Shown here piece by piece: positions 22,285 through 63,296 of a stretch of DNA of 64,000 nucleotides; the first letter of the stretch is position 1, and each line of letters opens with the position of its first letter. The notes below the pieces were generated by a model that was given only the letters and a program-made list of their open reading frames with translations, was not told the DNA's origin and searched no databases. A program made the translations under genes and the position numbers. Source of the stretch: a virus; IMG/VR virus record IMGVR_UViG_3300045994_000147, positions 2,909 to 66,908 of that record; one strand, given 5' to 3'.

Positions 22285-22654
22285 GGCAACTAAAGCGAAC
22301 ATAGAAGCACAATACGGATCCTTAGTCTCCACTCTAATTAAAGATGGGAAAGATATAGCCGATAATATAACTCCCTTAGAGGCAGACCTAATCCATAGTG
22401 TTTTAGGGATTGCTGGGGAAGCTGGGGAGCTATTAGATGCTATTAAGAAACATACTATCTACAAGAAAGAGTTAGACTTCGCTAATATTGTAGAGGAACT
22501 AGGGGATCTAGAGTTTTATATGGAGAATTTGAGAAAGGCTCTTAATATCTCTAGAGAGCTAGTGCTATTGACTAATATAGCCAAACTTACTAAGAGATAC
22601 CCTAAAGGTGCTTACTCCAACGAGGATGCTATCTTCAGAGCTGATAAGGCTTAA
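22250..22654 (+). CDS. MazG-like nucleotide pyrophosphohydrolase
   Basis: GIAGEAGELLDAIKK, EELGDLEFY and NIAKLTKRYP motifs. Confidence 0.88.
   Translation: MLTMNQEKKLSEATKANIEAQYGSLVSTLIKDGKDIADNITPLEADLIHSVLGIAGEAGELLDAIKKHTIYKKELDFANIVEELGDLEFYMENLRKALNISRELVLLTNIAKLTKRYPKGAYSNEDAIFRADKA
22339..22365 (+). promoter_or_regulatory. sigma-28 (FliA-type) promoter upstream of the phage sigma gene
   Basis: TAAAGATG-N11-GCCGATAA (equivalent to TAAA-N15-GCCGATAA). Confidence 0.75.
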
Positions 22655-22655
22655 T

Positions 22656-23327
22656 ATGACTAAAAGTGCTAATGAGCTGGTAAAAGAATACTCATCATTA
22701 GTTAAGCGTATTGCATATCATGTATCAACTAAACTCCCTGATTCAGTCTTGGTAGAGGATTTAATTCAATCTGGTATGATTGGGTTACTCGAAGCTCATA
22801 AGAGCTATAAGGACGATCAGGGAGCTTCATTTGATACCTTTGCTTCTATAAGGATTAGAGGGGCTATGATGGATGAGATACGGAGATGTGATTGGGTTCC
22901 TAGATCTGTATATAAGAAGTCAAGGGATGTTGCTAACGCTATCTATAAGATAGAGGCTGATACTCTCTCTGAAGCTAGACCGGCGGATATAATGCAATAT
23001 TTAGGGATTAGTTCTGAGGAGTATAATAAGATCCTTCATGACTCCTCTAAGACTAAGATAGTGTCTATAGATTCATTGTCTGATGATATGAGTGCAGATA
23101 TGAGTGATCCACCTTCCTCTCTTAACTTGAAAGAGTTTGAGAAGGAGCTATCTGAAGCTATAGAGACTTTGAGTGATAGAGAGAGATATGTTCTTCATCT
23201 GTACTATGATGAAGACTACAACCTTAGTAAGATAGGTGATATACTAAACATATCTGAATCAAGGGTATCTCAAATAAACTCTGAGATCGTCATTAAATTA
23301 CGTAAGAAACTAATAGGAAAAATATGA
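22656..23327 (+). CDS. fliA: FliA/WhiG-family (sigma-28) RNA polymerase sigma factor
   Basis: LVKRIAYH...LPDSVLVEDLIQSGMIGLLEA...GASFDTFASIRIRGAMMDEIRRCDWVPRSV; region 4 LSDRERYVLHLYY...IGDILNISESRVSQI; start re-called to ATG22656. Confidence 0.93.
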   Translation: MTKSANELVKEYSSLVKRIAYHVSTKLPDSVLVEDLIQSGMIGLLEAHKSYKDDQGASFDTFASIRIRGAMMDEIRRCDWVPRSVYKKSRDVANAIYKIEADTLSEARPADIMQYLGISSEEYNKILHDSSKTKIVSIDSLSDDMSADMSDPPSSLNLKEFEKELSEAIETLSDRERYVLHLYYDEDYNLSKIGDILNISESRVSQINSEIVIKLRKKLIGKI

Positions 23328-23629
23328 AAGCAGTAGATTTTCTGAAGAGATCACTAGATTTACTAGAACAAAGAGGGACGGAGTACTCCCAGGATGATTC
23401 AAAAGAAGAAAGAAGTTTCGCTTCAGTGGCTGCAATATTCAACGCTAAGACAGGTAAGAATATAACCCCTGCTGAAGTCTGCTTGCTTCTACAGGATCTA
23501 AAAGATGTTAGGCAATGGAGCCAAGATAGGTTACATCAAGACAGCGTAGAGGATTGTGTATCATACTCAGCACTTAAAGCTGAAGAGTTAATTAAACAAT
23601 ATAAAAGGAAAGAAGATGAAAAGAGATAA
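23324..23629 (+). CDS. DUF6378-like phage protein
   Basis: RGTEY...ERSF..VA..FN..TG...LK..R...H.DS.ED...Y.AL pattern. Confidence 0.65.
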   Translation: MKAVDFLKRSLDLLEQRGTEYSQDDSKEERSFASVAAIFNAKTGKNITPAEVCLLLQDLKDVRQWSQDRLHQDSVEDCVSYSALKAEELIKQYKRKEDEKR

Positions 23630-23674
23630 CTTAAGTTTGCTAAGGGAATTAGTAGGCAAGGATAATGATAGGTA

Positions 23675-24034
23675 GTGATTGCTTCAGCCGTTTTGTGCAT
23701 AGCTTTAAATATGTACATGGAGGCTAGAAGTGAACCAGTGGATGCTATGGTGGCAGTAGCTGCTATTACACTAAATAGGAGTAAAGATCAGGAGTATCCT
23801 AATTCTGTTTGTGAGGTAGTTTATATGCCATCAGCATTTACATGGACTAAACATAGAGTTAAAATAAAAGAGAAGGTAATGCTAGAAAGAACTAAACAGC
23901 TAGCGACTCTATATACTAAAGGTAGATTAAAGAATCCAATAGGTTCTAGAAAATTCTTTAATCACAAAAGGTTGGGTAAAAGGTTTAAGACGCCTTATAA
24001 GCCTATTGTTATTGGACAACTAATGTTTTATTAA
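23675..24034 (+). CDS. SleB-like cell wall hydrolase (Hydrolase_2)
   Basis: CIALNMYMEARSE, AVA..TLNR, YPNSVCEVVY, FTW and IGQLMFY motifs. Confidence 0.85.
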   Translation: MIASAVLCIALNMYMEARSEPVDAMVAVAAITLNRSKDQEYPNSVCEVVYMPSAFTWTKHRVKIKEKVMLERTKQLATLYTKGRLKNPIGSRKFFNHKRLGKRFKTPYKPIVIGQLMFY

Positions 24035-24035
24035 T

Positions 24036-25230: not shown

Positions 25231-25234
25231 AATA

Positions 25235-25390: not shown

Positions 25391-27078
25391 GCATATATGC
25401 AGATTTAAGTAATGAAAGAAAGGGCTTGCAGGAGTCAGGGGAATTACCTAATTGGGTAACAACTAACTCCTATCAGATGTTAAAAGAAAAGTATTTAGAG
25501 CCAGGAGAAACTCTTAAGAATAGATTTAGAGCAATAGCTGTAACAGCATCAAGATACATGAAGACCCACTCCTACTGGGAGTCTATATTCTTTGATCTAT
25601 TATGGAATGGATGGTTAGCACCTTCAACCCCAGTACTAGCTAATATGGGCAGAGATAAAGGCTGCCCTGTCAGCTGTTCCGGGGGGTACATAGGAGATAG
25701 TGTATACGACTTCTATACAGGTCAGCTAGAGGTGGCAATGCTCTCTAAGAATGGATTTGGTACCTCAGGGTACTTAGGAGACATTAGACCCAGAGGAGCG
25801 CCTATTAACGGCATTAAAGGGGGAGCTAGCGGTATTGTACCTGTCTTCAAAGATTATGTACAGGTTGCTAGAGATATTAGTCAAGGAAGTAGTAGGAGAG
25901 GGGCTTGGGCTGGTTATGTCCCTATAGATCACGATGACTTCCAAGAGTTAATTAATCACATCTCTAAATTCCCAGATGATGCTAACATAGGTTGGATCGT
26001 TAGTAAGAAATTCATTGACCGATTAGACTCAGGGGATAAGGAAGCTTTAGATAGATATCAGAAGGCTTTAAAGCTTAAAATGATAACTGGTAAAGGTTAC
26101 TTCTTTTTTGTCGATAAGGTTAATGATCTGAATCCGCAGTGGTACAAGGACAAAGGGTTAAAAGTACTTGCATCTCAACTGTGCACTGAAATAGCTCTTT
26201 ACTCAAACGAATGGGAGACATATACTTGTGTCCTATCCTCTATGAACTTATCTAAGTTAGATGAATGGGAAGATACTGATGCTATTTTTAATTCCACCGT
26301 GTTCTTGCAGTGTGTTGCGCTCAACTTTATTTCAATTGGAGCAGAAATTAAAGGTCTTGAAAAAGCAGTTATGTTTACTGAAAATAATATGGCTCTCGGT
26401 CTCGGTACTCTTGGCTTCCACACTTATCTGCAAGATCACTCTATACCTTTTGAATCTATAGATGCTAACTACGCTAACTCACGCATATTTAAACTCATGG
26501 ATGACGAGAGTCTAAGAGCCTCTAAGTGGTTAGCGGAGGAATTTGGAGAGTGTAAAGTAACTAAGGGATATGGAGTAGCTAATACCCATAGACTGGCAGT
26601 AGCCCCTAACCTCTCCTCAGCTTTGATTTGTGGTGGAGTGTCTCAGGGTATAGAGCCAGTATATAAGAACGCTTATATCCAAGGCACATCGTCTGGAGAG
26701 ATGAATAGAGTGAACCCTTCCCTCCTTAAGATAATGAAAGAAAGGGGGATGGATACCCCAGAGGTTATTTCAGATATTATAAATAACAATGGATCCATTC
26801 AGCATGTAAACTGGTTAAGTGACCATGAGAAATTAGTATTTAAAACAGCATTTGAGATTGATCAGAAAGTAATCATACGCCTAGCATCTACTAGACAACG
26901 TTATATAGATCAAGCTCAATCCATTAATTTATTCTTCTCCGCAGATGAAGATGAATCCTATATTTCAGAGGTTCATCAGTTAGCATTTAAAGACCCATAT
27001 ATTAAGTCACTATATTATATTCGTAGTGAATCTGGTGTCATGGCATCTAAAGGGGAATGTACTTCGTGTGAAGGTTAA
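25387..27078 (+). CDS. nrdA: ribonucleotide reductase class I alpha subunit (no ATP cone)
   Basis: STPVLAN, PVSC, SQGSSRRGA, SQLCTEI, CVLSSMNL, APNLSS, DQAQSINL, SLYY and C-terminal CTSCEG. Confidence 0.93.
   Translation: MSIYADLSNERKGLQESGELPNWVTTNSYQMLKEKYLEPGETLKNRFRAIAVTASRYMKTHSYWESIFFDLLWNGWLAPSTPVLANMGRDKGCPVSCSGGYIGDSVYDFYTGQLEVAMLSKNGFGTSGYLGDIRPRGAPINGIKGGASGIVPVFKDYVQVARDISQGSSRRGAWAGYVPIDHDDFQELINHISKFPDDANIGWIVSKKFIDRLDSGDKEALDRYQKALKLKMITGKGYFFFVDKVNDLNPQWYKDKGLKVLASQLCTEIALYSNEWETYTCVLSSMNLSKLDEWEDTDAIFNSTVFLQCVALNFISIGAEIKGLEKAVMFTENNMALGLGTLGFHTYLQDHSIPFESIDANYANSRIFKLMDDESLRASKWLAEEFGECKVTKGYGVANTHRLAVAPNLSSALICGGVSQGIEPVYKNAYIQGTSSGEMNRVNPSLLKIMKERGMDTPEVISDIINNNGSIQHVNWLSDHEKLVFKTAFEIDQKVIIRLASTRQRYIDQAQSINLFFSADEDESYISEVHQLAFKDPYIKSLYYIRSESGVMASKGECTSCEG
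26091..26117 (+). promoter_or_regulatory. sigma-28-type promoter inside nrdA
   Basis: TAAAGGTT-N11-GTCGATAA. Confidence 0.6.
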
Positions 27079-27223
27079 TTATGAGAAGCATATTAATAGC
27101 AGTAATAGTTGTAATGGCGTATTTTTTAATTCAAGTAGAGATTGATGGTGCTCATCCATGTTCTGCTTTTTCTAGTAATCAACAGGATTGTAACTCTGAC
27201 AACCATAGATAAGGACTAATAAC

Positions 27224-27955: not shown

Positions 27956-27957
27956 CC

Positions 27958-28801: not shown

Positions 28802-28830
28802 ATTATATCATACCTTTCTTGATTTGTCAA
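28802..28830 (-). promoter_or_regulatory. perfect-consensus sigma-70 promoter, antisense to the + arm
   Basis: Minus strand reads TTGACA-N17-TATAAT with TG extension. Confidence 0.75.
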
Positions 28831-28911: not shown

Positions 28912-31900
28912 TTACTCATTACCACTTAAAGCTTTCTGCATTTGCATCCTAACTAATTTAATCCTTTCATTTATACCTTTGATTTGATTAGCTCTCTCAG
29001 GCATAGGACTATTACGATCATGTGCAGCTCTGTACTTCATAGTATTTAACTCTTTGAGTTGCATATCGAATCCTACTTTCCTACCCTTCAGCCCAGACTT
29101 AAGATCTACCGATACTGGCCTGAACCCGGTTATATCCGAGACTGCCTGAGCTGGTGTGTACTTAAGAGAACCAAATGCAGTTACAGCTGGCTTACCTTCA
29201 TTACCTATACCAAAGGCTTCAGCCATCTTACCAAACCATCCATGAGATGATAGCCAAGCAGGAGTAACCATGTTATAAGCAAACAGCATAGACTCAGCTA
29301 ACTGTTGATTAGGAGAGGCTCCTGGAGTCATTATATCCTTACCAGTAAAACTATCTTTACCAGAGAGATAAGAAGCCATTGCTGTAGGAGCAGGGCCACC
29401 CAATACGCCGAAGTTGTTTGCTATAGTACCTATAGATTTAACAGATGTACCAAGTATATTCTGACCACCATCATTCTCAAAGTTCTCATAGACCTTCCTA
29501 GCTGCTGAAGACCATTGAGACCAAGGGATAATATAATCCAAGCTCATTATCTGAGGCCGTCCTAACTTATCTTTGAATGGTATGAAAGCTGTACCTGGAT
29601 TGTTACGGTAATAGTCAGATAGAGCAGCTTTATACTTACCCATGTCATCATCGTCCCAATCATTCACAGCAGCAGATATCATAGTCATAAGAGCTGGGAG
29701 AGTAGCATACTTAGCGAATTTTACAGGATGATTAACCATCGCTCTAACTGCAGCTGGCCCAGACTTATAGGCAAATGTTATGAAAGGAGAACCAAATGGT
29801 ATTCTTCTCAGAACCTTTACCATACTATTAACTTGGCTATAATCAAATATAGAGTCGTTGGCATGAGCAGCAGCCTTAGTGAATAGAACCTGCTGTTGCT
29901 CTGGACTAAGAGACTTATGACCTCCGGGAAACTCTTCTTTATTCTGAGTTTCCCATGTTTGAATGTAGTCTCTAAGAGCAACTGTCTTAAATGCACCTTC
30001 CAATAGAGAGAAGTACTTGGTAGTCTTATTATTGATCTTATGGTTAGCTATTCTCATAGTAGCCATAAATCTTTCATCTAAGAATGATAAATGTTTATCC
30101 CAAGGACTCTCTGTTCTCTTCTCGTACATCTTCTGAGCATTTACTAACTCATCCCCATAGCTATTGTAAACATCTTGTAGTTCTATAGCAGAGAAGGTAC
30201 TACCAAATAAACCATATTGGTTAGCTAGAGACCAAAAGTAACTTGGTTTACTAGATATACTACCAGTTATTTCTTGGTGTAACATTCCTATTAGTTTAGA
30301 TGTTGGAGTAGAAGTAGATAGATCTAGGAGGGATAAGTTACCTAATCCGTTCCTTACCCAGCTTCCCGGATTAAGAGCAACCATGTTTCTCTTCCAGAAG
30401 GTATTCAATCTCTCTAAGGTACCGCCTCTAGCAAACCACTTCTCTATGCTAGTCTTATTAGCTAGGTCATAGGCAGAGGTCATAGCATCCAAGTCATTAT
30501 AGATCTCTTTACGAACCCATTGATTCCTTAAGGCTCCAAATCTAGCATGATTAGGCATACGAGTGTAGTGGTTCTTTAAGAAAGCATCCTTATCTACTTG
30601 AGTAGTAGTACCAGTGGTAGTAGCGTGTTGAAAGGCTTGTTCTACTGCCTGATTCTCTAGTGCAGCTATGGCATCCTTTAACTTCTGTACATCACTAGAT
30701 AATGTAGTCCATCTCTCTCTACTGTTACCAAAGGTAGTTTGATTTCCTTTACTCCACTCATCTAACATGAAGGAGGTATCATTCAGGAGTTCATAAGCTC
30801 TATCTATAGTTACTTTTCTAGAAGACCAAGGTAGCTTAACCTTATCATTGTTTGTAAGAACCCAATGAAGGTTATTATCCACAGATGCTTTATTAAGAGT
30901 AGAGAACATATCCAATAGAACTTTATCTCTAGTAATAATACCAAGAGTCTCTGGGATCAAGAACTTAACATCCTTAATCTGACCCATAGCCATCCTTTCT
31001 CTCTCACTACGTCTGGTCTTCTTATTGTGCCAACCTAGGCCAGTCTTCTTACCAGACCCTCTATACTCATTGACATACTTCATGTAAGACACATGGAGGT
31101 AAGCGTCAGCATTAGCCTCGTATGTATCCTGAGGCACCATACCCAATTCATATAAAGACTTACCGATCTTATTAATAGAGTCTTTACTTCGTTGTAGAGT
31201 CTTTATTTGTAGAGGATTAAAATCAGAAGCTCTTAACTCAGCGCCCTTAGTAGTCATGTAATCAAATGCTAATTGGTTCTGTATAGGATTAAGACCATTA
31301 AGAACTAGAGCAATACTCTTAACATTCTCCTCAGCAGCCCCTACCTGGCCTTTAAATACATCTTGAATAGCAGTATAAGCCTTTTGGAATTGCATGCTAC
31401 CTAGAGCCTTCCAGGCAGCAAATACACTATTATCTAAACGGGTATTTAAGTTTTTCCAAGCTCTAGATCTAACATTATCAGAGAGATCGCCAAGGGTAGA
31501 ATTATGAAGATTAATAAAAGCATTGATATCCGCTATTGGAGCAAGCTCCATGTGGTGAGTGATCTCATCTTCTGAGAGTTGGGTTTGATCAAATGATATC
31601 TCACCAGCAGAGTAAGACTGCCTTTCAGCAGATACTCCAGAGACATCTATATCCTCTATCTCTTCTATAGTTATATGTGAATCTATAAATGGTTTAGATG
31701 AGACACTGGCAAAGTCAGGATTAACTGTTTCAAAGATTGTATCAGTGGATGATGCAATAATCTTAATTAAATCCTTTTTACTAATGGAGTCAGTATAATC
31801 GCCAAAGAAAGCTCTAAGATAGTGTTTAATTCTATTAATAAAATTATCAAGCCATTCAGCTCTTTTCTTTCTTAATAGGTTTCTTGCTGGACTGTCTTTT

Positions 31901-34900
31901 ATACCAAGTCCAACTTGAGTCTTTAAGAACTGCTCAGAGTTGAAAGAGTCTTTAGCTAACTCAGCCATGTACTCATCAGCTAATCTAGAAGCTACTGACG
32001 CAGGTAAATCAACATCAGTTATAATACCCTTAATAGGAACAGTAAACCTATACTTCTCATCAGAACCAAGAGTTTGCATATAGGCTTTATATGTTATCTC
32101 CCTCTCCCTCAAATAGTATGGAGTTAACTCTGGAGTAATATCTCTATATCCAGGGATATTATCCATCTTCCATCTATCCAAATAGGCGTGCCATCTAGGT
32201 AATAGTTTTAATATATCCCCTCTCATCTCTGCTGAACTATTAAGTAAGTTAGCTAAGAATGAATTGTACTTACTTTTACTACCAAAGAACTCAGATAAAC
32301 CAAAGTGGCCTATGACCTCATGAGCAAATGTTCCTACCATATCCTGTGGATTAGCGAACATAGAGCTGTTGATGTATATTCTAGTTTTGGGGTGTGACAT
32401 ATTAGGGGCTATATGCATACCACCAGCAGTCCTAGAAGCACTTCCTGGATTAACTTTATCCTCTACAGCCCAATCTCTTATAGCAAAGTCTTTAACAAAT
32501 ATAAAGTCTACTTTATCTTTAATGTTTTGTGAGATATTTTTAACTAGATATTCAAAAGCTCTCTCATTCTCTGCGTGATCTACATTAGAGGGAGTGGAGA
32601 GAGAAGCACTAAGGTCTATATCATCATCAAAGTGGAGGGATACATTATTCCCATAGTCATCTATAAACTCTTCATCATTATACCCTTTAGATACAGTTCT
32701 CTTTACCTCAGCAGATATAACAGGCCTAATTACTTTCAACCTGCCTCTTAGATCAGCTAGTTCCTCTGACTCAGCATCATAATCAACCCCATTAGATTTG
32801 AACTCTTTAACTAGATCAGTTAGTTCAGCTATCCTGCCCTTAATAGAATCTAGTTCTTCGTTCTCAGATGGGGAGAGAGTTAGTATCTCAGTGGATTTAG
32901 ATTTTAATTCTACTTTATTTAACTCATCTTCTGCAGAGTAGGCATCTTTATCGTCTATAGATTCTATAGAATCAATAGTCTCCACAGCTTCTTTGTTAGA
33001 TTGTAGAACCTTAGCTATCTCATTCTCTACTGGTTTAACACTAACATTGTTTATGGAGCTATTAGGCAGTCTAACCTGAACAAAACCATCAGATCCATCG
33101 CTATTCTTATATTGAATAGTTCCAGTTATAGCTGATGCAGTATGAGATACTACATGCAACTTAACATCTTTCTGTTGATCTGGTGGGATCTTTAGATCTA
33201 GTATACTCTTGAAGTTACGATCACGAGGAACATTAGTTAAGTCTATTGATGTCTCATCACCCTGTTTGTATTTAACTTTCTCTACTTTAGGTTTAGTAAC
33301 CTTAGCTGCTTTCTCTTTAACAACTTTAGGTTTAACTACCTTAGCCGCTTTAGCACTCTTAGCTTTAGAAGCAGCAGAGGTAATAATACTCATCTTATCT
33401 ACTGCAGGTACTTGGTGAGCTATTACTTCTTCAGTTGTTTTGGGGAGTGATTGTTCTTGTGGAGTAAGTTTATTATTTATTTCTGCTATTTCAGCAACTA
33501 TACCTTTACCTTCCTTTTTAGCCTCATCTACTGACAAGTCATCCCACTCCTCTGGGTTACTAAGGACATTATTAGTATGTTCTAACTGCCGTTTTAAGTA
33601 ATCTAATCTACCAGTTAATAAAGCCTTATTGGAGTCTTCAGAGGATCTAGGGGTTCCTTTTTTACTTAAATCCCTGCTCTCTCTAAAAGCCTGGCCCTCA
33701 TCAGATCTGTTTCCAGTTGAACTATCAAAAGGGGGCAAGATTCCTCCAGTACTCTCAGCTAGATCGTATAGGGCTGTAGCTAATCCTTTTCTTCTGTGAT
33801 TAGCCTGAACACGGACGGATGGCTCAGTATCATAATTACTAGTAGCGTATGATAAAGACCCCATGTAATTATTAGATTCATCGTAAGCCTCTATATGGCC
33901 TGAGTTTGGATCCTGCAAGTTTACTAGTTTAACTACTGACCCATCTTTAAGAGTTGTAGTTGTATAGTCGTTGTTGGATAAAGCTTCTTTAGTTAAACCA
34001 AGTATATTATCTTTAAATGTAACATCAGGTGCTGATACTACGTTATTATCTAACTTAACGTAGGACTTAGTAGGAGCCTCAGGGGTCACTGTAGCCTCTT
34101 GAGACACTTGTTCCTGTGGAGCTACTGTAGTCTCTTCTAGTCTAAGAGTATTAGCATCATACCACTCTTTCTTCCACGCCGCTTCTACTTCAGGGGGTAC
34201 ATTAAAATCATCTTCAGGAGCCACTTGTTCCTGTGGAGCTACTGGAGTCTCAGGGACTATTGGAGCTTCGGTAGGTGCTGGAGCTGGTTCAATCTGTGGA
34301 CTACTATCAGCAGTTTCAGCTTGAACTCCAGTAGAAGCTTTGGCAATGGCCTCATCCTCTTTCTTCATTCTATCTTCTTGATTTAGAGAGGAGGAGTGAG
34401 AATTATTTATAATATCTTTAATCTTCTCTGATACAATAGATTTAACACCATTATTCTTATCAGAGGTGGAGATAGCATTAAGATCATTAAGGATAGCATT
34501 ATAAGTGGATTGGTATTCCTCAGAGCTAGGACTCAATCCTGATTTCAGTAAATCTATATAATTATTGTAAGCCCTTGCTGCTGCTGGTATTCTTATAAGT
34601 TCTCCAGTAGGTAAGGTAGTTTCATTAGAAGGTTTAGCTTTAAGAGCTTCAGTAACTTTCTCTGATTCACCTTGTGCATACCGAGGTATAGGCTGATTAG
34701 TTGCAATAGCCCCTTGAGCATCACTGTACCAAGAGTCAGCGGTTTTAATACCAGCTGCCTTAGCATCCTTGTGGATCATATCAATTACAGCTTTCCGTTG
34801 ATCTGGAGTAGCTGCTGTAGGTTCATCTAGAGCCTTGGAGATTGCATTAGCCCTGACACTGTTCTTATAGTGCCCAACCAAGCCAAACGGTGAAAGCATA

Positions 34901-49683: not shown

Positions 49684-50187
49684 TTACTTTAATAAAAGAT
49701 TATGAGCTATTCTTCTAGCCCACCCTTTACCTTGTGATTCCCATGCTGGTATCTCAGTAAAGAATAGGAGCCTATTAGCGTTATAGTACTGTTTAAGTAA
49801 TACAGGGTCTATAGAGCTAGCAGCCTTGAGTGTATTCTTTCCTATGATACCATCAGGTTCTGATCCAACAGAAGTCTGAAGGATCTTAATAGATCTAGTC
49901 ACACCACTATTTACAGCAGTATCAAATAGATCAAAACTGATCGAGGAAGGTAATTCATTTATCCTAAGTTTATTCCAATAATCCCTTAGATATATCTCTT
50001 TCGCCCTGTCAAGGCTAAGGTTCTGTATATCCTCATCAGGATAAGACATAGAAGAGATACCAAACATACTTCCTTTCAGTTCACCTACTCCTATTTTACC
50101 TGATGTCCAGTTGCCTCTGTCTCTCCGATCCATGGAGAGCTTACCCTCATTCCCTATTAATAATTTAAATGCATCATTGAAGTTCAT
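49684..50187 (-). CDS. endolysin, glycoside hydrolase family 108
   Basis: EG...D..DRG, FGIS, IY.RDYW, FDTAVNSG, DGIIG..T and GW.RR motifs. Confidence 0.88.
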   Translation of the reverse strand: MNFNDAFKLLIGNEGKLSMDRRDRGNWTSGKIGVGELKGSMFGISSMSYPDEDIQNLSLDRAKEIYLRDYWNKLRINELPSSISFDLFDTAVNSGVTRSIKILQTSVGSEPDGIIGKNTLKAASSIDPVLLKQYYNANRLLFFTEIPAWESQGKGWARRIAHNLLLK

Positions 50188-54769: not shown

Positions 54770-56449
54770 TTATCCATTGGCAGCCCCAACACTATTAGTA
54801 GTTACTACCTTACTACCACCTATAGATATCGTCCTATTTCCATCCATAGCTAATACTCTTATTGATAAAGATATAGGGGCTATAACGCTAGTTCCGTATA
54901 GAGCAATATTACCGAGGTAGCTATAATAACCTATAGATCCCTGTAAGCTATAAAGTCTTTTAGAGGTTGCAGGGTAAGTTGTATAAGCGTAGACCCCTTT
55001 AGATCCAAATAGAACTCTACTTTTAGTTAGAGCAGCTTGATTACCTGTATAACCATATAATCCAATAGAACCTTGAAGGCTATGGGTATTTTTAAATAAT
55101 CCAGATAGGCCTGTGCTGGTGTAAGTGCCTTTAACCCCAGAGAGGGTGTATCTTTTAACTAAAGTTGCTGTATTACCTAATAAGGTATAAACACCTAAAG
55201 CACCTAATAGGGTATAGTGATTAGTAACTGCATTGGATGTGTAAGTTAATGTACCCGAAGTCCCTAAATAACTATAAGATCCAGATGTGCTGTTTAATAA
55301 TCTATTAGTCTTAAAGGTTGATGTTCTACCTGTTAAAGAGTGAGAGCCTATAGCCCCACTTAGTACTCTATTACTTCTAAAGGTTGATGTATTACCTGTT
55401 AGAGAATAAGAACCAATAGCACCTAAAAGAGTGTAGTGATTAGTAACTGCATTGGAGGTATATGTTAATGTACCTGCACTTCCAGTTAAACTGTAACTTC
55501 CAATCACCCCTAAGAGAGTGTGATTACTTCTAAAGGCTGATGTCTTGCCTGAAAAGGCAAGTGAACCAACGGCACCATTTAATAATCTATTAACCTTAAA
55601 GGTTGCTGCATTGCCTGTTAGACTATAAGATCCAGCGGTACCTGATAGAGTGTAGTTAACTACTCCACTAGATAAGGTTAGGAATTGCGGTATAGATGGG
55701 CTTTTTAAGAGCTGCCAGAAGTTTTGCGTTAATCGAACAGCCTCTGCATTAGTCAGTACTCTGTCGTAAAACCCAAAAACCTGAATCATACCTCCGTTTG
55801 CCATTATTTCAGTAGCGTAATGAGCACCAAGCGCATACTGCCTATTTAGCGTAAACGTTTGAACGAAAGCGAATTGGCCAATAGAAACACCATTAACGTA
55901 AAATGAGACCGTTGCACCATTATAGGTAACTGCAATATTATAAAACTGACCAGCTGTAACGGCACCAGCAGCCGATGCAACACCTGCAACACCTGACTTA
56001 AGAAGTCCTATTGCGCCTGCGGCGTCAATTCTGAGCTGAATGGAACCAGACCCAGTTGCAGATGAATAGATTGATTGATTAGATAAGCTGGCAAAATTAA
56101 CCCTCGCAAAGAGCGTAAAACTACCACTTGTTTTCGGCGCTCCCGTGCCTGTGGCATCTCCTAGATTAAGATTTATAGATGACGCAGTACCAGTACCAAC
56201 TGAATTAAAGTTAACTGCATACCCCGATGAAGTAACCAGCCATTTATTTCCGCTTACCGTAGAAGGTATGCCAACCCCAAATTTACCGTTCAACCCAGAG
56301 ACGGAATCAGTTATTGAGTTATTACCAGACTGATTAAGGCCCCAGAAGTGAGATAGGCCTTTAGACAGGGGGTTACTTAGGTCTATACCTGTGTTGCTTT
56401 GCGGCTGAGTAGTGCTTACCTTTTTGGTTAACCTAAGAATATCAGCCAT
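54770..56449 (-). CDS. LamG-domain fibre protein with G(S/T)Y.LTG repeats
   Basis: YNIAVTYNG..V.FYVNG and YDRVLT; ~23-aa repeats in the C-terminal half. Confidence 0.7.
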   Translation of the reverse strand: MADILRLTKKVSTTQPQSNTGIDLSNPLSKGLSHFWGLNQSGNNSITDSVSGLNGKFGVGIPSTVSGNKWLVTSSGYAVNFNSVGTGTASSINLNLGDATGTGAPKTSGSFTLFARVNFASLSNQSIYSSATGSGSIQLRIDAAGAIGLLKSGVAGVASAAGAVTAGQFYNIAVTYNGATVSFYVNGVSIGQFAFVQTFTLNRQYALGAHYATEIMANGGMIQVFGFYDRVLTNAEAVRLTQNFWQLLKSPSIPQFLTLSSGVVNYTLSGTAGSYSLTGNAATFKVNRLLNGAVGSLAFSGKTSAFRSNHTLLGVIGSYSLTGSAGTLTYTSNAVTNHYTLLGAIGSYSLTGNTSTFRSNRVLSGAIGSHSLTGRTSTFKTNRLLNSTSGSYSYLGTSGTLTYTSNAVTNHYTLLGALGVYTLLGNTATLVKRYTLSGVKGTYTSTGLSGLFKNTHSLQGSIGLYGYTGNQAALTKSRVLFGSKGVYAYTTYPATSKRLYSLQGSIGYYSYLGNIALYGTSVIAPISLSIRVLAMDGNRTISIGGSKVVTTNSVGAANG

Positions 56450-56452
56450 AGG

Positions 56453-56950
56453 TTAACCTAAAGTATAACCCTGGTACTTAATTACATTACCAGTTGATAG
56501 TGCAGCCCCTGAGTAATTAACTAGAGCAATACCCCAGTATGAAGGCAACACACCTCCGAAAGCTTGAGCAATGCTAAATATAGCTTCTTGTGTGTTACTA
56601 GCGAAGTTAGCAGGGTATTGAATTGAACCAACAAGCTTTAAGTTATTTGGTAATGTAGAGATATCAGGGAATGTTAAGGCCCCAACAGTTCCAGCAGCTC
56701 CGCCTGTTGTTGCCCCTGTTGTCCCTAGGTCTGTGATGTTATTCCCACCAAAGGCAAAGATGCTAATACATTTATTATTAGCTGGGACTGTGTTGGCTAT
56801 TGTTATTAGAAAGTTTACATAGACATCAATAAATTTATTAGTTGTATTATCAATGTATCCGCTCCCCCACCCAGCCGTAGCACTGTTAGCTAGAGAGTCT
56901 AGGGATGTAGTTGTTACTGTAGTCTCTGTTCCGTAAATTGGGCCTGCCAT
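56453..56950 (-). CDS. virion appendage protein
   Basis: T/G/N-rich beta protein in the late arm. Confidence 0.55.
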   Translation of the reverse strand: MAGPIYGTETTVTTTSLDSLANSATAGWGSGYIDNTTNKFIDVYVNFLITIANTVPANNKCISIFAFGGNNITDLGTTGATTGGAAGTVGALTFPDISTLPNNLKLVGSIQYPANFASNTQEAIFSIAQAFGGVLPSYWGIALVNYSGAALSTGNVIKYQGYTLG

Positions 56951-57402
56951 TATAATACCTCATGTATTGCGTTAGATATATCATTCTCATTAATAGCTAA
57001 CCCAAGCTGTTCAGCGCGGCTGATCATCTTCTTACCAAATGACAATATAGTTAATTTATTAGTTTCAGTAAAATCAGGAATAAGAGGCTCGGCTACCACT
57101 GCATCTAATGTAGCTGTTATTTTACCGAGAATGATTGGATTACTCAGATCAAATCCACTCTCAGTAAAATCTGCTAGAGCCATGTTAAACTCACGGCATG
57201 ATAGAGTTGTGCTATCTAGCATTGGTAGCCTTAATCCTAATAAGGAGATGTATTGTTTTACATCATGTACAGTAAGTTTACCATACACCTCTATATCCTT
57301 ACGATTTAAAGCGTTAGCTATTGTAGAGAAGTCGTGATTAATTACAGATGGCCCAAGTTCTACGGCCAATGGGCCTGTTGTTATTTCTGTATATATACTC
57401 AT
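56950..57402 (-). CDS. hypothetical protein
   Basis: IANALN and ISRAEQLGL motifs; coupled to neighbours. Confidence 0.6.
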   Translation of the reverse strand: MSIYTEITTGPLAVELGPSVINHDFSTIANALNRKDIEVYGKLTVHDVKQYISLLGLRLPMLDSTTLSCREFNMALADFTESGFDLSNPIILGKITATLDAVVAEPLIPDFTETNKLTILSFGKKMISRAEQLGLAINENDISNAIHEVL

Positions 57403-57404
57403 GA

Positions 57405-57818
57405 TTATGCAATAGACAACACGCCATTTACAGCGTCTGGAGTGAAGACGAAGGTATCAGCATTAGTTCCATTCATTACAATAGATGAACCATTATCCCA
57501 ATATCCCACTTGAATGTTTCCAGTCTTATTTACTAGGGCTACATATCGAAATGTAAAGCCTGCACCTGATGCAGTCCATGTAGCAGGGGCTGCCAAAACT
57601 AATTTGTATGTTCCAGTAGCTTCTGCTGATGTAATTGTAGCTACGTTAGCCCCACCTTGAGTATAACCACCACCTGTAACAAGATCAGAGGTTCCAGCAA
57701 CAAATGCTGTTCCTGATGGAGCTGTATTGGTAAGAGTAAATGCCCATTGATCTGTGCCAGCATTTAAACTCTCAACTAAAAGTTCAATTGCTCCAGCTAT
57801 TTTATTGTATACTGCCAT
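57405..57818 (-). CDS. virion structural protein
   Basis: GGGYTQGG, WTASG..F.FRY and GYWD.G motifs; AGGA RBS. Confidence 0.6.
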   Translation of the reverse strand: MAVYNKIAGAIELLVESLNAGTDQWAFTLTNTAPSGTAFVAGTSDLVTGGGYTQGGANVATITSAEATGTYKLVLAAPATWTASGAGFTFRYVALVNKTGNIQVGYWDNGSSIVMNGTNADTFVFTPDAVNGVLSIA

Positions 57819-57831
57819 TTTATTTCCTATT

Positions 57832-58077
57832 TTAGTTTATCTGAATGTTGTGTATATCGGCAGAGCTAGTGCAAACTGTAGCTCCATTATCTATTACAAT
57901 TAAGGATTTACTCTTATTATCTACTCCAATCGGTGGTGAAGTAGGGCAAGTAGCTAATAACCTAACCCTATACTTATTATCTAATCTATTCATCATGTCA
58001 TTTAGTAAGCCTATAGTAGCCATTGATTTAGTTACAGACAATAGGCCTAGAGTTACTACATTTAATGAAGCTGGCAT
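57832..58077 (-). CDS. hypothetical protein
   Basis: TAATG-coupled to the upstream gene; co-directional with the late arm. Confidence 0.45.
   Translation of the reverse strand: MPASLNVVTLGLLSVTKSMATIGLLNDMMNRLDNKYRVRLLATCPTSPPIGVDNKSKSLIVIDNGATVCTSSADIHNIQIN
57854..57880 (-). promoter_or_regulatory. sigma-28-type promoter
   Basis: TACAGTTT-N11-GCCGATAT, about 36 nt upstream of ATG57818. Confidence 0.78.
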
Positions 58078-61016
58078 TATAACCTCGTAGAAATTACTGA
58101 ATTATTTATCTCTTCCATCTGTATTACAGTAGAACCAAAGGATATTTGTGTTGGAGAGGTGACCATTGCTATACCTTTACTCAACCCTAATCTCCCATGG
58201 ATCTCATTTAGCTGGGAAGAAGCTGCTAGATAAGCTTTGCTGGGTTCTAGCTGTATTGGCCCGTTACCAGCTATAAATACAGATAAATTATCAGATCTAT
58301 ATAACCTAGCCCCTTCTATAATAACTGGTTGAGTGCTTAAATTCTTTATCTTAAGATTAACAACATCAGCATTTATCCTATAGTTAAATAAATCTTCAGC
58401 AACAACAGCCCCATAGTACCCAGAGATGCCAGAGGGGAGATTGGTAGCATATACATAGAAGGCATATAGCCTCTGAATACTAGTAATACCATCTGGATCT
58501 GTTACATCTACTAGAACATTAGTGAAATTAGCAGTGAATTCTGTACAAGTAGCTCCATCTATAGCATTAGTATTATAGGTAGTGTCTAGTTCCTGGTTTA
58601 ATTGAGTGCTAAAGCCAGAGGAAGTAAAAGTACCTGTAGATTGGTAAGGTAAATGGCTTAAAAGAGGAGAGTAGTGCGTAGCCCTTACTCTAACAGCATA
58701 ATCTGTAGACCAATTGCTTGTTAGGGAGAGAGTGGAAGAAAGGACAATATCATTATATAACTCAGCATTGGAAGTAGTATTAACTACTTGAACCCTGGAA
58801 TTAGGGATGATATTACTAATCTTAATGAGCTGGTAGATACCAGCGGAATGGGTGATTGGGAGAGATGAAGAGCCACTTATAGTTAAGGTGTTTACCGTTA
58901 AACTACCAGAGCCTGTTAAACTACCTGTTATTGTTAAGTTAGATGATAAAATAAAATTGATACCATCTGTACCTGTGATTATTGGCTCTATTCTATTTTG
59001 AGTTTCATACCACTTCAACCAATCATATACCTCTCTAATAAAGAGAGCGCCACTTATACTCAGTGTTCCTGCAGAATAACTGATACCTGATAGAGCACCA
59101 GCAGCTGATTCTGATAATTGAACTACAGTATCAATTGTTTGAATGGTAGATGACGGATTGTATTTGTAACCGTATTGATATATCCAATCAACATAAGGTG
59201 CGACAAAGAAGCCACTAACCCAGAATTTACCAAGGACAGACGGTGATTGTCCAGACACGGTAATCGTTAATTCACCTGATGTTACCGGGGTGACAAACAG
59301 GGACTGATAATAATCAGTATTAACTGATCCTCCAGCTGTGAATACCTGGGGCGTGATACCCAAACCAGAAACGGTTACTGTTGGTGGGTTAGTTACACCA
59401 TAGGTGGTGTCATACCTTAAACCAAACCTGAAGGCCGAGGGTACACCTGCTGAGGCAGCCACATAATAGGAATATGCGTGAGGTGTATTAGCTACAATAG
59501 GCTCGAATCGGATTGATGACCTGCTGTTTGAAAATAACTGTGCATTATCCCTGTAGATCACACCCGTCTTTATCCACTTTTCTTGGACTAGAGGATCGGC
59601 ATTTCTATTAATCACATTGACTTCACTACCATTACTGGATTCTTGTATTTTTGAGGCAAGTACTGCTATGTCGAATGCCTTCATTGCCGGTGGCATCTGA
59701 CAATTCTTGAAAGTGACATTAAAACTTGCTTCAAGCCCCCCTGAGAGTAGATAGGATTGAACAAACGGTATAGTCACCCCAAGATCACATTCTTCAAATA
59801 TACAACCAGGTACTGCACCCATATTAGCTAGTCGTGCTGAATTACCGATAGTTACACGGTAATAATAGGGTGAAATAGACACACTATTACTGAGTGACGT
59901 ACTGTTTACTCCAATAAACCAGCCCCCAATCCACCTACAGGCCTGGCCACCTTGTGAGTTAGACGAAACGTTAGCACTACCATAAGTGAACCCACAATTT
60001 ACAAAATCTGCGGTCACCCCACCACCAAAATATGAACAGGTTTGGTTAGCGCTTGCGACTGTAAAACAGTCTGTCAATATAGCTCTGGGTCTGAAAGAAA
60101 AAGTTTGTAAACCAGTCCCTAATGTATTTCCAAAATTATCAAATGTCATACCTTTGATATTAACCGGGCTGACGCCATAGACTATTGAGTTTGAACAATT
60201 AAGTCCGAACGTTGAATTCTTTTGGGATGTAGCATTAGCCGTCTGACCAATGTTTTTGAATACAGCGTAGCTATAGTCATGTTGTAAAAGTGGAGTAGTG
60301 GTATTACAAATATGCCATTGATACCCAGGGAATGAAGCACTAAAGCTAGTGAACGTAACATTGCTTGTGCCGTTACCCACACCCCCTCCGGCTAGGTGAG
60401 CTTTGGGCACTGCTGTAACTGGCACGATATAAGCGCCGGCTGAACCAGTGATAGCCCCGTTGATGGTTACAACAGAGGGGACATAGCTAGCTGAACTGGT
60501 AGCTGTGATGTATAGGGTATCACCAACATTCCACCCAACCACTTGATCGACTTGTATGGAGGTAGCACTAATGGCAACAGCTGCTGTTAAACGAGCTACT
60601 GGAACCCGAGTAGCGCCTGCAACAAAGAACTTTGAGGTGGCGAAGGTAGTGATCCCGTACTTACAGATAGCCATTGTTAGTGATTGATTGAGGATAAGGG
60701 TAGCAGTAATACCTAGAGGTATCTGATCATTTACTCCAGAACCTGCAGTAGTCTTTCCGAAATCGAATTCACCACCTGCTGAAATTACTAACTCGCCATA
60801 ACAAGTAAGGGAACTATTGACAGTTCTACTTGCTTTGAGTATACCATTTACAGTGATACCTGTGATTGTATCATCTCCCCAGGTATGAGTAGAGGAGAGA
60901 GTAACTGTATGTCCTAAGGCAATGGTAACCTTATCCCCTTGTACTGGGACAACCCCACCAACCCATGTAGTTGTAGCTGTAGATAACCCAGAGGTTGCTG
61001 AAGTTATAGCTGCCAT
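58077..61016 (-). CDS. tail spike/appendage protein (G8-like N-terminus, beta-helix-like middle)
   Basis: SG....TTWVGGVVP..GDKVTI..GHTVT; repetitive beta-rich body. Confidence 0.65.
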   Translation of the reverse strand: MAAITSATSGLSTATTTWVGGVVPVQGDKVTIALGHTVTLSSTHTWGDDTITGITVNGILKASRTVNSSLTCYGELVISAGGEFDFGKTTAGSGVNDQIPLGITATLILNQSLTMAICKYGITTFATSKFFVAGATRVPVARLTAAVAISATSIQVDQVVGWNVGDTLYITATSSASYVPSVVTINGAITGSAGAYIVPVTAVPKAHLAGGGVGNGTSNVTFTSFSASFPGYQWHICNTTTPLLQHDYSYAVFKNIGQTANATSQKNSTFGLNCSNSIVYGVSPVNIKGMTFDNFGNTLGTGLQTFSFRPRAILTDCFTVASANQTCSYFGGGVTADFVNCGFTYGSANVSSNSQGGQACRWIGGWFIGVNSTSLSNSVSISPYYYRVTIGNSARLANMGAVPGCIFEECDLGVTIPFVQSYLLSGGLEASFNVTFKNCQMPPAMKAFDIAVLASKIQESSNGSEVNVINRNADPLVQEKWIKTGVIYRDNAQLFSNSRSSIRFEPIVANTPHAYSYYVAASAGVPSAFRFGLRYDTTYGVTNPPTVTVSGLGITPQVFTAGGSVNTDYYQSLFVTPVTSGELTITVSGQSPSVLGKFWVSGFFVAPYVDWIYQYGYKYNPSSTIQTIDTVVQLSESAAGALSGISYSAGTLSISGALFIREVYDWLKWYETQNRIEPIITGTDGINFILSSNLTITGSLTGSGSLTVNTLTISGSSSLPITHSAGIYQLIKISNIIPNSRVQVVNTTSNAELYNDIVLSSTLSLTSNWSTDYAVRVRATHYSPLLSHLPYQSTGTFTSSGFSTQLNQELDTTYNTNAIDGATCTEFTANFTNVLVDVTDPDGITSIQRLYAFYVYATNLPSGISGYYGAVVAEDLFNYRINADVVNLKIKNLSTQPVIIEGARLYRSDNLSVFIAGNGPIQLEPSKAYLAASSQLNEIHGRLGLSKGIAMVTSPTQISFGSTVIQMEEINNSVISTRL

Positions 61017-61029
61017 AAATATCCTTTAA

Positions 61030-61191: not shown

Positions 61192-61684
61192 ATGTAGTTA
61201 TTACTATACCTTCCAAAGTTCCCTGGGCCTCCTCAGGATCTATTAGAATCTTCTCATCTAATTGTGGGAGAGAGGGAGAGTTATAATTAACAATGTTAAA
61301 CACTTGATTATTATCTTCCCTCTTCTCTTGAAAGAGACCAAAGTGTTTACCTAGTTGTGTTAGTGCTTGTATTCGGGCAGCATGATTGGATCCAGATCCT
61401 TCTCTAGTCCCCTCTTTCCATAGTTTCTCTATGATTAACTCAGGAGAGATCATAAGGGAATCTGCTTTATCTTGTAAAGCAGAGGAGATGTGAAATTGTA
61501 CAGATTCTTTACGAGAGAAGGGGTTGTCAGAATGATGCTGTTTAAGATTGGGAGCTACTGTCCTATGGGCCTCTATGTGAGAGAGAGAAGAGAGGTATGC
61601 TCTTACATACAATCTATCCAGTGGCTCTAGCCTAGGGGTTCTAATAGAGACTGTTTTACCTTCTTCCTCTTCTTTATTACTCAT
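61175..61684 (-). CDS. terminase small subunit-like protein
   Basis: YVRAYL...EA and ARIQALTQLGKHFGLF motifs; start re-called to ATG61684. Confidence 0.7.
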   Translation of the reverse strand: MSNKEEEEGKTVSIRTPRLEPLDRLYVRAYLSSLSHIEAHRTVAPNLKQHHSDNPFSRKESVQFHISSALQDKADSLMISPELIIEKLWKEGTREGSGSNHAARIQALTQLGKHFGLFQEKREDNNQVFNIVNYNSPSLPQLDEKILIDPEEAQGTLEGIVITTYENDE

Positions 61685-61826
61685 CTTCATCGTCCATATC
61701 AAAGTCAGCGAAGGCCATGTCTATAGGCCCCCATGTAAACTCCCATCCATTATAGCCTGTATGTATCCAAGGGATTAAAGTCCAGTATCTAATATGAGGG
61801 AGGGAGAGGTGTAGTTGTTTATTCAT
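61677..61826 (-). CDS. small Trp-rich protein (49 aa, not in ORF track)
   Basis: Overlaps both neighbours; acidic tail. Confidence 0.4.
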   Translation of the reverse strand: MNKQLHLSLPHIRYWTLIPWIHTGYNGWEFTWGPIDMAFADFDMDDEDE

Positions 61827-62799
61827 TGTTCCCTTTCTTTTTAGAAAGTTTAATCATAGTTGCTTTTACTTGTGGTAGAGTACCAAATATCCCGTGGCAA
61901 TCAAAACTTCTAGGATTTCTACCTGGATTCTTTACACGAAAGACACAATTAATCTTGTTGTAGAAGTCAGAGTCTAAACCATCTCCAATAAATACTCCAT
62001 AACCTACTAGGTCTGGGCCATATAGCTCAGGAAGATCTGGGGAATATAAGCCTACACATCGCTTAGAGTCAAACGAACATAGAATTGGAGGGTACTTTTG
62101 TTCTCCAGAACTCTTCGGGGCTTCATATTCTTTATTAGTTACAGGGTCAAAGACATGTGGAGTATGTAGATGCCAGTGAGCGTAGATAGTCGCTGCTTCG
62201 AATGTTGCACTCTCATAGTCCTCATTAGGTGTAAAAGTAATATGTTGATATATTACATTATCTTCAATGGTGGTTATTTTATCTAAGAAAGTTTGGCTTC
62301 TTAGTTCGGTGTTAACTGCTGAATACCTAGTAGTTCCACCACATCCAGAAGGATACTGAGCCTTTGGATTTAACCAGTACCCCATTTGTGATGATGTATG
62401 TACTTGATTATAAATAGAGGACTTAACTTTTGGTGCAAGACGCACAAGTGTACTGTGCCAGAGTTTTGAAGTTACTTGCTTACCTTTTGGTACGTTCTGA
62501 GACCCTGCTTCCGTAGGGTTAAGGCATTCACCTAACCCATTATAGCTTACAGCGGTTTGATATTCGCGCCCATGGTCATTGTACATTTCGTTTCCAAGGA
62601 CTTGTATAGGCCCATTGATGTATTCATTTCCTTTAGAATCCTTTACAGATATAATTGCACTAGCGTAGTTTACTGGGTCGAAGATAGCCTTAAGTTCAGG
62701 GTTTGTTCCAGTATGGTTGTAAGTTTGGATGGTGAATTTTGCTTGCACTGAAAAGGCCGTACAAAGCATAAGTACTAATATTAATTTATTCATTGGCAA
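61819..62799 (-). CDS. exported protein of unknown function
   Basis: Sec signal MNKLILVLMLCTAFSVQA-K; DHGREYQ and NPTEAGS motifs. Confidence 0.65.
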   Translation of the reverse strand: MPMNKLILVLMLCTAFSVQAKFTIQTYNHTGTNPELKAIFDPVNYASAIISVKDSKGNEYINGPIQVLGNEMYNDHGREYQTAVSYNGLGECLNPTEAGSQNVPKGKQVTSKLWHSTLVRLAPKVKSSIYNQVHTSSQMGYWLNPKAQYPSGCGGTTRYSAVNTELRSQTFLDKITTIEDNVIYQHITFTPNEDYESATFEAATIYAHWHLHTPHVFDPVTNKEYEAPKSSGEQKYPPILCSFDSKRCVGLYSPDLPELYGPDLVGYGVFIGDGLDSDFYNKINCVFRVKNPGRNPRSFDCHGIFGTLPQVKATMIKLSKKKGNNE

Positions 62800-62841
62800 A
62801 GGAGGAGAGTGTAGATAATAGAAGGATGGTAGCTAGTTTCT

Positions 62842-63105
62842 TCATGCTTTTCCTGCGTTCTTATTTCGTTTATAGGATCTATTGGCTGAGGCTGATTGAA
62901 CCCTTAGGTTCTTAGGGGAGTTGTTATTGGCATTGGTATCTTTATGATCTACATCCAATCCATCCCCTACTCTTACTCTCCCTTTCTTTTGGAGGGAGTA
63001 TCTAGCTCTTCCTCTACTGGCTCTCTTTTTCTTTTGGGAAGGAGTTCCTTGGTAGTTAGCATATTCTTGTTTGTAATCTCTTTTATATCCTGGAGATGAA
63101 GGCAT
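62842..63105 (-). CDS. small HNH-motif protein, first gene of the late arm
   Basis: RDYKQEY, GDGLDVDHKD...N...NLRV....NRS; AGGAG RBS. Confidence 0.75.
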   Translation of the reverse strand: MPSSPGYKRDYKQEYANYQGTPSQKKKRASRGRARYSLQKKGRVRVGDGLDVDHKDTNANNNSPKNLRVQSASANRSYKRNKNAGKA

Positions 63106-63269
63106 TGGTTTCTCCTATTAGTACTAATAGATCTATTAGGATCATTAGAATCATTATAAATTTATATTGTTTATTAAATATTTAATTAAATAATAATAAG
63201 TTCATTATTCCCTTAGGATCTAAGAGAACTTATAGTACTACTAGTTCCCTAACCCCCCTATATCCCCCC

Positions 63270-63296
63270 ATATCGGCAGGAAGATTGATAACTTTA
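63270..63296 (-). promoter_or_regulatory. sigma-28-type promoter heading the late arm
   Basis: TAAAGTTA-N11-GCCGATAT in intergenic DNA, with an AT-rich upstream region. Confidence 0.82.

Follow-up and report, generated by a model that had tools for sequence, protein, structure and literature searches.

A FliA-family sigma factor of a podovirus-like phage that probably switches on late genes through sigma-28-type promoters

Phage sigma factors that serve middle or late genes include phiEco32 gp36, SPO1 gp28 with gp33/34, and T4 gp55, and those known are strongly diverged or ECF-like proteins that recognize phage-specific motifs. Among cellular factors, the sigma-28 family has been reused for late developmental genes by Streptomyces WhiG and chlamydial sigma-28, which have their own anti-sigmas. 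Bacillus phages carry host-derived SigF/SigG-like sporulation-type sigmas with a suggested effect on host dormancy (Schwartz et al., mSphere 2022, PMC9429907), and the terms FliA, SigD, flagell-, motility and WhiG are absent from the main text of that paper. Our literature search found no description of a phage FliA used as a late sigma. Here we analyse a sigma gene of the FliA (sigma-28) family in the 66,908-b IMG/VR virus record IMGVR_UViG_3300045994_000147; the window, to which coordinates refer unless stated otherwise, is the 64,000-nucleotide (nt) stretch spanning bases 2909–66908 of that record. The record has a direct terminal repeat of 127 b and a rating of complete, and represents a complete lytic podovirus-like phage of 66.9 kb from river metagenomes. 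Comparison with cellular FliA proteins, promoter consensus sequences and related phages suggests that this phage has probably recruited a motility regulator as the switch for its late genes, and we consider it likely that its FliA took over late-gene switching through three leftward sigma-28-type promoters.

The sigma gene is located as follows.

22656–23327, + strand: FliA-family sigma gene, 223 amino acids (aa) (P0001), assigned by NCBIfam, Pfam and PDB alignment

The open reading frame (ORF) has no internal stops and carries IRIRGAMMDEIRRCDWVPRSV and SESRVSQI, two segments for which a preliminary description of the window had called it a complete FliA-like sigma. That assignment is borne out by both curated FliA models, the whole protein scoring 249.2 bits against NCBIfam NF005413 (FliA; cut-off 201) and 232.3 bits against TIGR02479 (FliA/WhiG; cut-off 189.6). 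The protein has the group-3 architecture, with regions 2, 3 and 4 and neither region 1.1 nor region 1.2. In particular, Pfam Sigma70_r2 (residues 8–80, 60.8 bits) and r4 (residues 168–217, 57.6 bits) both exceed their cut-offs, and r3 (residues 88–144) scores 20.5 bits, under its cut-off of 25.3. Residues 4–219 align with the solved FliA chains of P. aeruginosa (3e-57) and E. coli (6e-43) in the PDB, and the protein begins about 10 residues later than its homologs.

In P. aeruginosa FliA, residues R80, D87 and R97 are described as contacting bases of the −10 and extended −10 elements, and S224 and Q228 as contacting bases of the −35 element (PMC12784957). Mapped through pairwise alignment onto this numbering, all five residues are identical in the phage sigma (R66, D73, R83, S202 and Q206), and all five are invariant in the 119 best cellular homologs. 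Two further positions differ: P. aeruginosa Y76 is F in the phage sigma, and H100 is Y, a residue found at that position in 35 of the 119 homologs.

The sigma-28 consensus is given in PMC2859248 as TAAAGTTT-n11-GCCGATAA. Cognate sites are present in the sigma's own genome: the whole 66,908-b sequence contains five sites with at most 2 mismatches in 16 to TAAAGTTT-N11-GCCGATAA, all with a spacer of exactly 11 and all oriented like the local genes.

63270–63296, − strand: sigma-28-type promoter at the head of the late arm, TAAAGTTA-N11-GCCGATAT; intergenic
57854–57880, − strand: sigma-28-type promoter, TACAGTTT-N11-GCCGATAT; in the last codons of an 81-aa ORF
50220–50246, − strand: sigma-28-type promoter, TAAAGTTT-N11-GTCGATAA; in the variable 3′ end of the portal gene; best match, 15/16
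22339–22365, + strand: sigma-28-type site, TAAAGATG-N11-GCCGATAA; within mazG, 290 nt ahead of the sigma ATG
26091–26117, + strand: sigma-28-like site; within nrdA, in conserved GKGYFFFVDK codons; doubtful

These are the sites listed in the preliminary description, whose coordinates, strands, letters and 11-nt spacers all hold, as do its statements that the sites run with the local genes and outnumber chance expectation. Specifically, 100 Markov shuffles gave a mean of 0.05 and a maximum of 2 spacer-11 sites with two or fewer mismatches. A relaxed pattern, TAAAG-N14-GYCGATAW with at most one mismatch, matches six times, the sixth match being GCAGATAT at 4019–4045 (+), against a mean of 0.31, and six matches were reached in none of 100 dinucleotide shuffles. 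The window contains nine GYCGATAW boxes, five of which have TAAAG or TACAG at the correct distance. Three sites with three mismatches (24570+, 33302− and 48994−) were not counted, the expectation for all sites with three or fewer mismatches being 0.88. Furthermore, only 3 sites occur in 496 kb around 80 cellular fliA genes, and the density in the phage is about 12 times higher.

The placement of the gene and of the sites follows the organization of the genome, which is divided into two converging arms.

28912–63105, − strand: late arm, 28 ORFs of at least 60 aa, plus three of 52–53 aa
21882–23629, + strand: sigma block (65-aa ORF, 72-aa ORF, MazG, sigma, 101-aa ORF), phage-specific

Rightward genes run from the left end of the window to about 28.8 kb and comprise small early ORFs, an amidoligase cluster, a primase-helicase, an NAD-salvage pair, a split DNA polymerase, thymidylate synthase, MazG, the sigma, class I ribonucleotide reductase and PhoH. 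The late arm encodes packaging, lysis, head and tail functions and a 2274-aa protein, in the leftward order HNH-like, small-terminase-like, variable module, holin, large terminase, portal, endolysin, tRNA-Tyr, major capsid, head-closure and tail proteins, and the 2274-aa protein. The sigma gene thus lies among replication and nucleotide-metabolism genes on the rightward arm, and three of the five sites lie before late genes, as is expected of a late sigma. Portal and terminase searches recovered relatives with a common gene order: the complete 65-kb GenBank genome MW202615.1 (76% portal identity), eight close IMG/VR contigs, among which G003 is 81% complete, and 17 metagenome loci.

The three leftward sites precede the major groups of late genes. 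The site at 63270 lies about 165 nt ahead of the 87-aa HNH-like gene, which is followed by the small-terminase-like gene. The −10 box of the site at 57854 ends 35 nt ahead of ATG 57818, which has a GGAA Shine-Dalgarno sequence; downstream are a tail-like module that is not in MW202615.1 or G003 and then holin, large terminase and portal. The −10 box of the site at 50220 ends 32 nt ahead of the endolysin ATG at 50187, likewise with a GGAA Shine-Dalgarno sequence, and endolysin, a 308-aa gene, tRNA-Tyr, major capsid and tail genes follow. The claim that two sites lie about 35 nt before a start codon therefore stands. The placement of the sites needs qualification: those at 57854 and 50220 are inside the 3′ ends of ORFs, and those at 22339 and 26091 are inside mazG and nrdA. 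The 81-aa ORF around the site at 57854 looks real: it has a ribosome-binding site, overlaps the preceding gene by TAATG and has a coding score like that of other small genes. The site at 22339 combines a perfect −10 box with the weakest −35 box of the five, and tblastn against MW202615.1 and G003 found no ortholog of this region for comparison; its position suggests a possible self-amplifying sigma promoter. The regulon proposed for the late arm is accordingly narrower than in the preliminary description: three sites serve the arm, the other two do not, and the letters of the nrdA site are mostly explained by its codons.

Promoters of the sigma-70 type are found at the genome end.

63766–63950, + strand: three tandem sigma-70-type promoters, TTGACA-17-TAGACT, then TTGACA-17-TAGAAT twice; 10, 11 and 11 of 12 positions

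These point into the terminal repeat and the early genes and are putative early promoters. Within 44–64 kb, sigma-70 matches occur at chance level (59 vs 58.8), in accordance with the preliminary description, which had seen no good sigma-70 promoter serving the late arm; one 10/12 match lies directly upstream of the site at 63270, and we return to it below. As had also been noted, no phage RNA polymerase is apparent, since none of 51 ORFs scanned against PHROGs, including all ORFs of at least 400 aa, matches an RNA polymerase family. A PF00940 search for a T7-type polymerase gave no signal, and its control likewise gave none. A perfect sigma-70 promoter (TTGACA-17-TATAAT with TG) is present at 28802–28830 (−), in the gap between the converging arms; it faces the 3′ terminus of the rightward arm, and no ORF follows it.

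The relatives lack both the sigma and its sites. The sigma block (21882–23629), which is flanked by conserved thymidylate synthase and 119-aa hydrolase-like genes, has no counterpart in MW202615.1 or G003 by tblastn of all ORFs, and other small genes lie between the same flanks. No sigma gene was found in the seven relative records searched, all portal relatives; the sigma protein served as query for G001–G005, and a tblastn search over the phage collection covered MW202615.1. The Pfam r2 and r4 models and the NCBIfam ECF model gave no match in MW202615.1, G001, G003 and G005, and seven MW202615.1 ORFs without a counterpart in the phage have no sigma-like Pfam match at E up to 0.1. The preliminary description had proposed to compare the sites in relatives with and without the sigma. 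In our motif scan set of 24 relative sequences (281,727 b, one complete genome, after dropping two duplicate loci), there is no sigma-28 site with two or fewer mismatches (null 0.5), an outcome in favour of the proposed reading.

Another promoter class occupies the late strand of the relatives. The motif TGAACTT-N14-15-TGTCTAA, with at most one mismatch, occurs 14 times in the 24 relatives, 14/14 on the late strand, against a mean of 0.35 and a maximum of 2 in 20 shuffles, and is absent from the present genome, which has the five sigma-28 sites.

L002 2666–2863; L003 2662–2845; L108 2257–2456 and 11344–11372: RpoE/AlgU-like motif of the relatives, TGAACTT-N14-15-TGTCTAA(G)
L109 1153–1180; L116 2040–2068; G003 (L015) 10093–10311; MW202615.1 62015–62043: further occurrences of the RpoE/AlgU-like motif of the relatives
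63174–63204 (genome 66082–66112), − strand: decayed promoter of the relatives' class in the present phage, TGAACTT kept, spacer 17, −10 TATTTAA for TGTCTAA

One or two copies of the motif stand at the late-arm head, and others lie before the large terminase and before the portal. In L002, L003 and L108, the portal gene carries near its 3′ end a weaker form, GGAACTA-N15-TGTCTAAG (2 mismatches), about 85 nt before endolysin, which is the position of the site at 50220 in the present phage. At the head of the late arm, the anchor sequences GGGGCCAA upstream and TTAGATCCTAAGG downstream are common to the phage, L002 and L003; between them lies the sigma-28 site in the phage and a TTGAACT...GTCTAAG promoter in L002 and L003. 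The motif resembles E. coli RpoE promoters, for which ‘GGAACTT’ and ‘GTC’ are given in PMC6648896, and a host stress sigma (RpoE-like) or an unrecognized factor may serve the late genes of the sigma-less relatives. KPP25 (37% portal identity) has neither promoter class, indicating that the RpoE-like class is confined to closer relatives. Because the relatives have neither the sigma nor sigma-28 sites and carry the other class, the late promoter class appears to have changed together with the gain of the sigma, and the one sigma-bearing genome is the one with the sigma-28 class.

These observations bear on the possibility that the sigma manipulates host motility or chemotaxis, the phage sites being secondary or non-functional and the late genes using unrecognized promoters. 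Such a role would suit a protein whose closest relatives are cellular FliA proteins, and it would suit sites of which two in five are intragenic, one of them explained by codons, with three late sites for 34 kb. We nevertheless regard it as highly improbable: five co-oriented consensus sites stand against 0.05 expected, three of them are directly ahead of late gene starts, and the late promoter class of the relatives is lost from exactly this genome.

Our data are consistent with the following working model of a late switch driven by the phage FliA. Host sigma-70 polymerase would fire the tandem promoters at the genome end, and the rightward arm, including the sigma gene, would be read. The phage sigma would then bind host core RNA polymerase and direct it to the three leftward promoters (63296, 57880 and 50246), which would turn on the packaging, lysis, head and tail genes, and the mazG site could feed back on the sigma gene and amplify its expression. 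The timing of the switch and the identity of the reader, phage sigma instead of host FliA, are inferred from the sequence.

Several observations weigh against this model. Two of the five sites are inside nucleotide-metabolism genes (mazG and nrdA). At the place equivalent to 26091, the nrdA of G003, a genome without the sigma, reads TAAAGGTT-N11-ACAGATAA, and PhoH, which is not an evident late gene, lies downstream of that site; since the sigma-less G003 ortholog nearly reproduces its letters, we treat the site as probably an incidental by-product of conserved codons. The site at 57854 has a C at position 3 of its −35 box, a mismatch, and for the E. coli aer promoter an A-to-T change at that position is reported to lower activity about ninefold (PMC2859248). 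Three promoters are few for 34 kb, which means that unrecognized late promoters may exist. Directly upstream of the site at 63270, at 63343–63316, is the sigma-70-like TTGATA-16-TAAAAT (10/12), the best on the late strand. The co-occurrence of sigma and sites across the family is observed in a single sigma-bearing genome (n=1), and changes at 30 otherwise conserved columns of the protein may mean that some sigma function is altered. Finally, the FliA of a flagellated host would read the same sites, and hence the phage copy need not be the reader.

The last point raises the alternative that host FliA mainly reads the sites, the phage copy only boosting their use or titrating FlgM and thereby freeing host FliA. 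The sites fit the general sigma-28 consensus, readable by any FliA, and the relatives, in which no sigma was detected, appear to use a host-type RpoE-like promoter, so that reliance on host sigmas is possibly a habit of the lineage. The interface with the anti-sigma FlgM can be read both ways. Of the 12 FlgM-interface residues named in PMC12784957, 7 are identical in the phage sigma, in favour of this alternative, and R40 is K, as in 67 of the 119 homologs. The sigma-4 changes L200Y, A203H, E209D and L210Y (P. aeruginosa numbering) affect columns in which 82–100% of cellular homologs have one residue, and such changes at conserved interface columns fit a decoy poorly. They are suggestive of escape from FlgM and remain a hint, because 30 of the 119 columns conserved at 90% or more in cellular FliA differ in the phage sigma overall, and the interface is not clearly enriched in such changes. 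Non-motile cells would be closed to a phage that relied on host FliA; in addition, the intact DNA-contact residues and the phage-like base composition point to direct use of the sigma, and relatives without the sigma are also without the sites. Reading by host FliA is therefore unlikely in our judgement. An extension of the phage-FliA model, which we consider quite unlikely as a whole, is that late genes of this lineage are normally on promoters read by host RpoE and that one member swapped the whole set for its own FlgM-proof FliA; the late programme would then be independent of host state, host late flagellar and chemotaxis genes would be fired, and infected cells would swim and spread the phage.

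Cellular homologs of the sigma share 49–56% identity with it, the named ones being Methylococcales, Methylobacter and Methylomarinum FliA, and the highest identity (52–56%) is to Methylococcales FliA. We built a quick IQ-TREE phylogeny from the phage sigma and 80 named gammaproteobacterial FliA sequences, keeping all rows and using SH-aLRT support only. The phage sigma branch measures 2.75 changes per site, compared with a median of 0.15, and the phage sigma has no supported placement among the 80 FliA. A Methylococcales donor would rest only on the top identity, the placement in the tree being unsupported, and we claim neither donor nor host. In the same tree, a contig from an assembled genome (MAG) labelled ‘Halobacteria archaeon’ (L072, JABDRC010000256.1) carries a gammaproteobacterial-type FliA that nests among Gammaproteobacteria; this contig is probably mis-binned.

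The sigma gene has a GC content of 36.6% and a GC content at third codon positions (GC3) of 32%, like its phage neighbours, compared with medians of 55% and 60% for 80 cellular fliA genes. Its start lies two bases past the mazG stop (TAATATG), and its stop overlaps the next start (ATGA). Phage-like GC and GC3, the coupling of its ends to the neighbouring genes and the branch of 2.75 indicate long residence, and on these sequence features the sigma is an old, fully adapted phage resident, neither contamination nor a fresh capture. The earlier proposal that a motility sigma was domesticated as a late switch is thus supported by the sites, the protein family and the relatives, except that the capture is not recent. 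An artefact, in which a bacterial sigma gene was joined to a phage contig through misassembly, deserves mention because the source is a metagenome and GenBank ‘phage’ FliA records proved to be bacterial flagellar operons. It is scarcely credible here: the genome, rated as complete, shows terminal repeats of 127 b, the gene has phage-like GC and GC3 and an overlap with its neighbours, no flagellar gene is nearby, and the cognate promoters span 41 kb of genome. A sequencing-run search returned 5 river-metagenome DNA runs as possible sources of the phage DNA and listed no RNA run.

Other viral contigs also encode FliA/WhiG-like sigmas, of more divergent sequence. No close relative of the sigma emerged when IMG/VR and JGI metagenomes were scanned for peptide patterns of the single protein, and its 90% cluster has 3 contigs on record. 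An alignment-based scan of IMG/VR returned 35 viral contigs with sigma genes (L119–L153), several of jumbo size, such as the 331-kb contig of L119 and the 461-kb contig of L122. Their best-segment identity to the phage sigma is 21–37% for near-full-length matches and up to 50% over short partial matches. The best NCBIfam model is FliA_WhiG or WhiG for all ten of these sigmas that were scanned, one of which reaches the TIGR02479 cut-off (190.3 vs 189.6) and none the FliA cut-off of 201. No cellular fliA-neighbour genes are found near any of the 35 loci, and their flanks (518,599 b) contain one site with two or fewer mismatches, with a spacer of 10 and a poor −10 box.

Searching 50,697 phage records with the sigma by tblastn gave 10 matches, Listeria records among them, the five best being unannotated ‘UNVERIFIED Bacteriophage sp.’ scaffolds. 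ORFs were scanned in two of these five, and MT835480.1 (L099) and MT835847.1 (L100) were rejected as bacterial DNA for their flagellar neighbours (FlhB/FlhA/rod genes or CheB/CheA/CheC). Bacillus phage G matches the sigma over region 2 only.

Outside the sigma block, the phage differs from its relatives at several further places. The DNA polymerase at 15624–17738 (+) consists of 290-aa and 168-aa ORFs interrupted by an endonuclease VII-like ORF (16624–17160), and in MW202615.1 it is a single uninterrupted 448-aa ORF at that place. A GCCGATAT box overlaps the start codon of the endonuclease VII-like ORF, and its −35 box is poor (3 mismatches). The ribose-phosphate pyrophosphokinase-like, nicotinamide phosphoribosyltransferase-like and RNA ligase-like genes at 12027–15347 (+) have no tblastn counterpart in MW202615.1 and none in G003, whose contig is without that part of the arm.

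In the late arm, a module at 54770–61016 (−) of 979-, 81-, 137-, 150-, 165- and 559-aa ORFs, the last with a concanavalin-like lectin domain, is not in MW202615.1 or G003; L002 has its 137- and 150-aa genes at 41–42% identity. The module probably encodes host-recognition proteins and has its own sigma-28 site (57854–57880). The 2274-aa protein (28912–35736, −), which terminates the late arm, has no PHROG family at 1e-5 and shares 46% identity over about 1300–1400 aa with giant homologs of MW202615.1 and G003.

The apparent swap of promoter class in an otherwise syntenic family provides a natural before-and-after pair for the rewiring of a late programme by joint exchange of sigma and promoters. 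The phage sigma could also cross-activate host flagellar genes. We met no description of a host stress sigma (RpoE-like) serving phage late genes, as may apply in the relatives if that assignment is true. The system is open to standard tools, since E. coli or Pseudomonas core polymerase, fliA-null strains and FlgM exist.

Compared with cellular FliA of E. coli and P. aeruginosa (PDB 6pmi and 9wsf), the phage sigma belongs to the same family and has the same DNA-contact residues, consensus and 11-nt spacer. It differs in residing in a lytic phage, where the PHROGs scan of 51 ORFs revealed no gene for flagella or chemotaxis and where virion, packaging and lysis genes are its presumed targets, and in its long branch, later start and bulky changes at four FlgM-interface positions. 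WhiG and chlamydial sigma-28 serve cellular developmental programmes, and the present case would extend such reuse to a viral late phase. The Bacillus-phage sporulation sigmas likewise represent capture of a group-3 factor, but here the phage genome itself holds the cognate promoters. Of the 35 other viral sigmas, the ten scanned have FliA/WhiG models in common with the present one; the group is more divergent and lacks canonical sites in its flanks. With the sigmas of phiEco32, SPO1 and T4 it would share, as proposed here, the redirection of host core polymerase and a gene placed among early or middle replication genes, and a phiEco32-type amidoligase/COOH-NH2 ligase cluster is also present in this phage. 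As those factors are generally described, the contrast is that the present sigma is an ordinary-looking FliA with an apparently standard bacterial sigma-28 promoter. Phage late sigmas as such are already known; judged from sequence, what is new is a near-canonical FliA together with canonical promoters that replace another promoter class.

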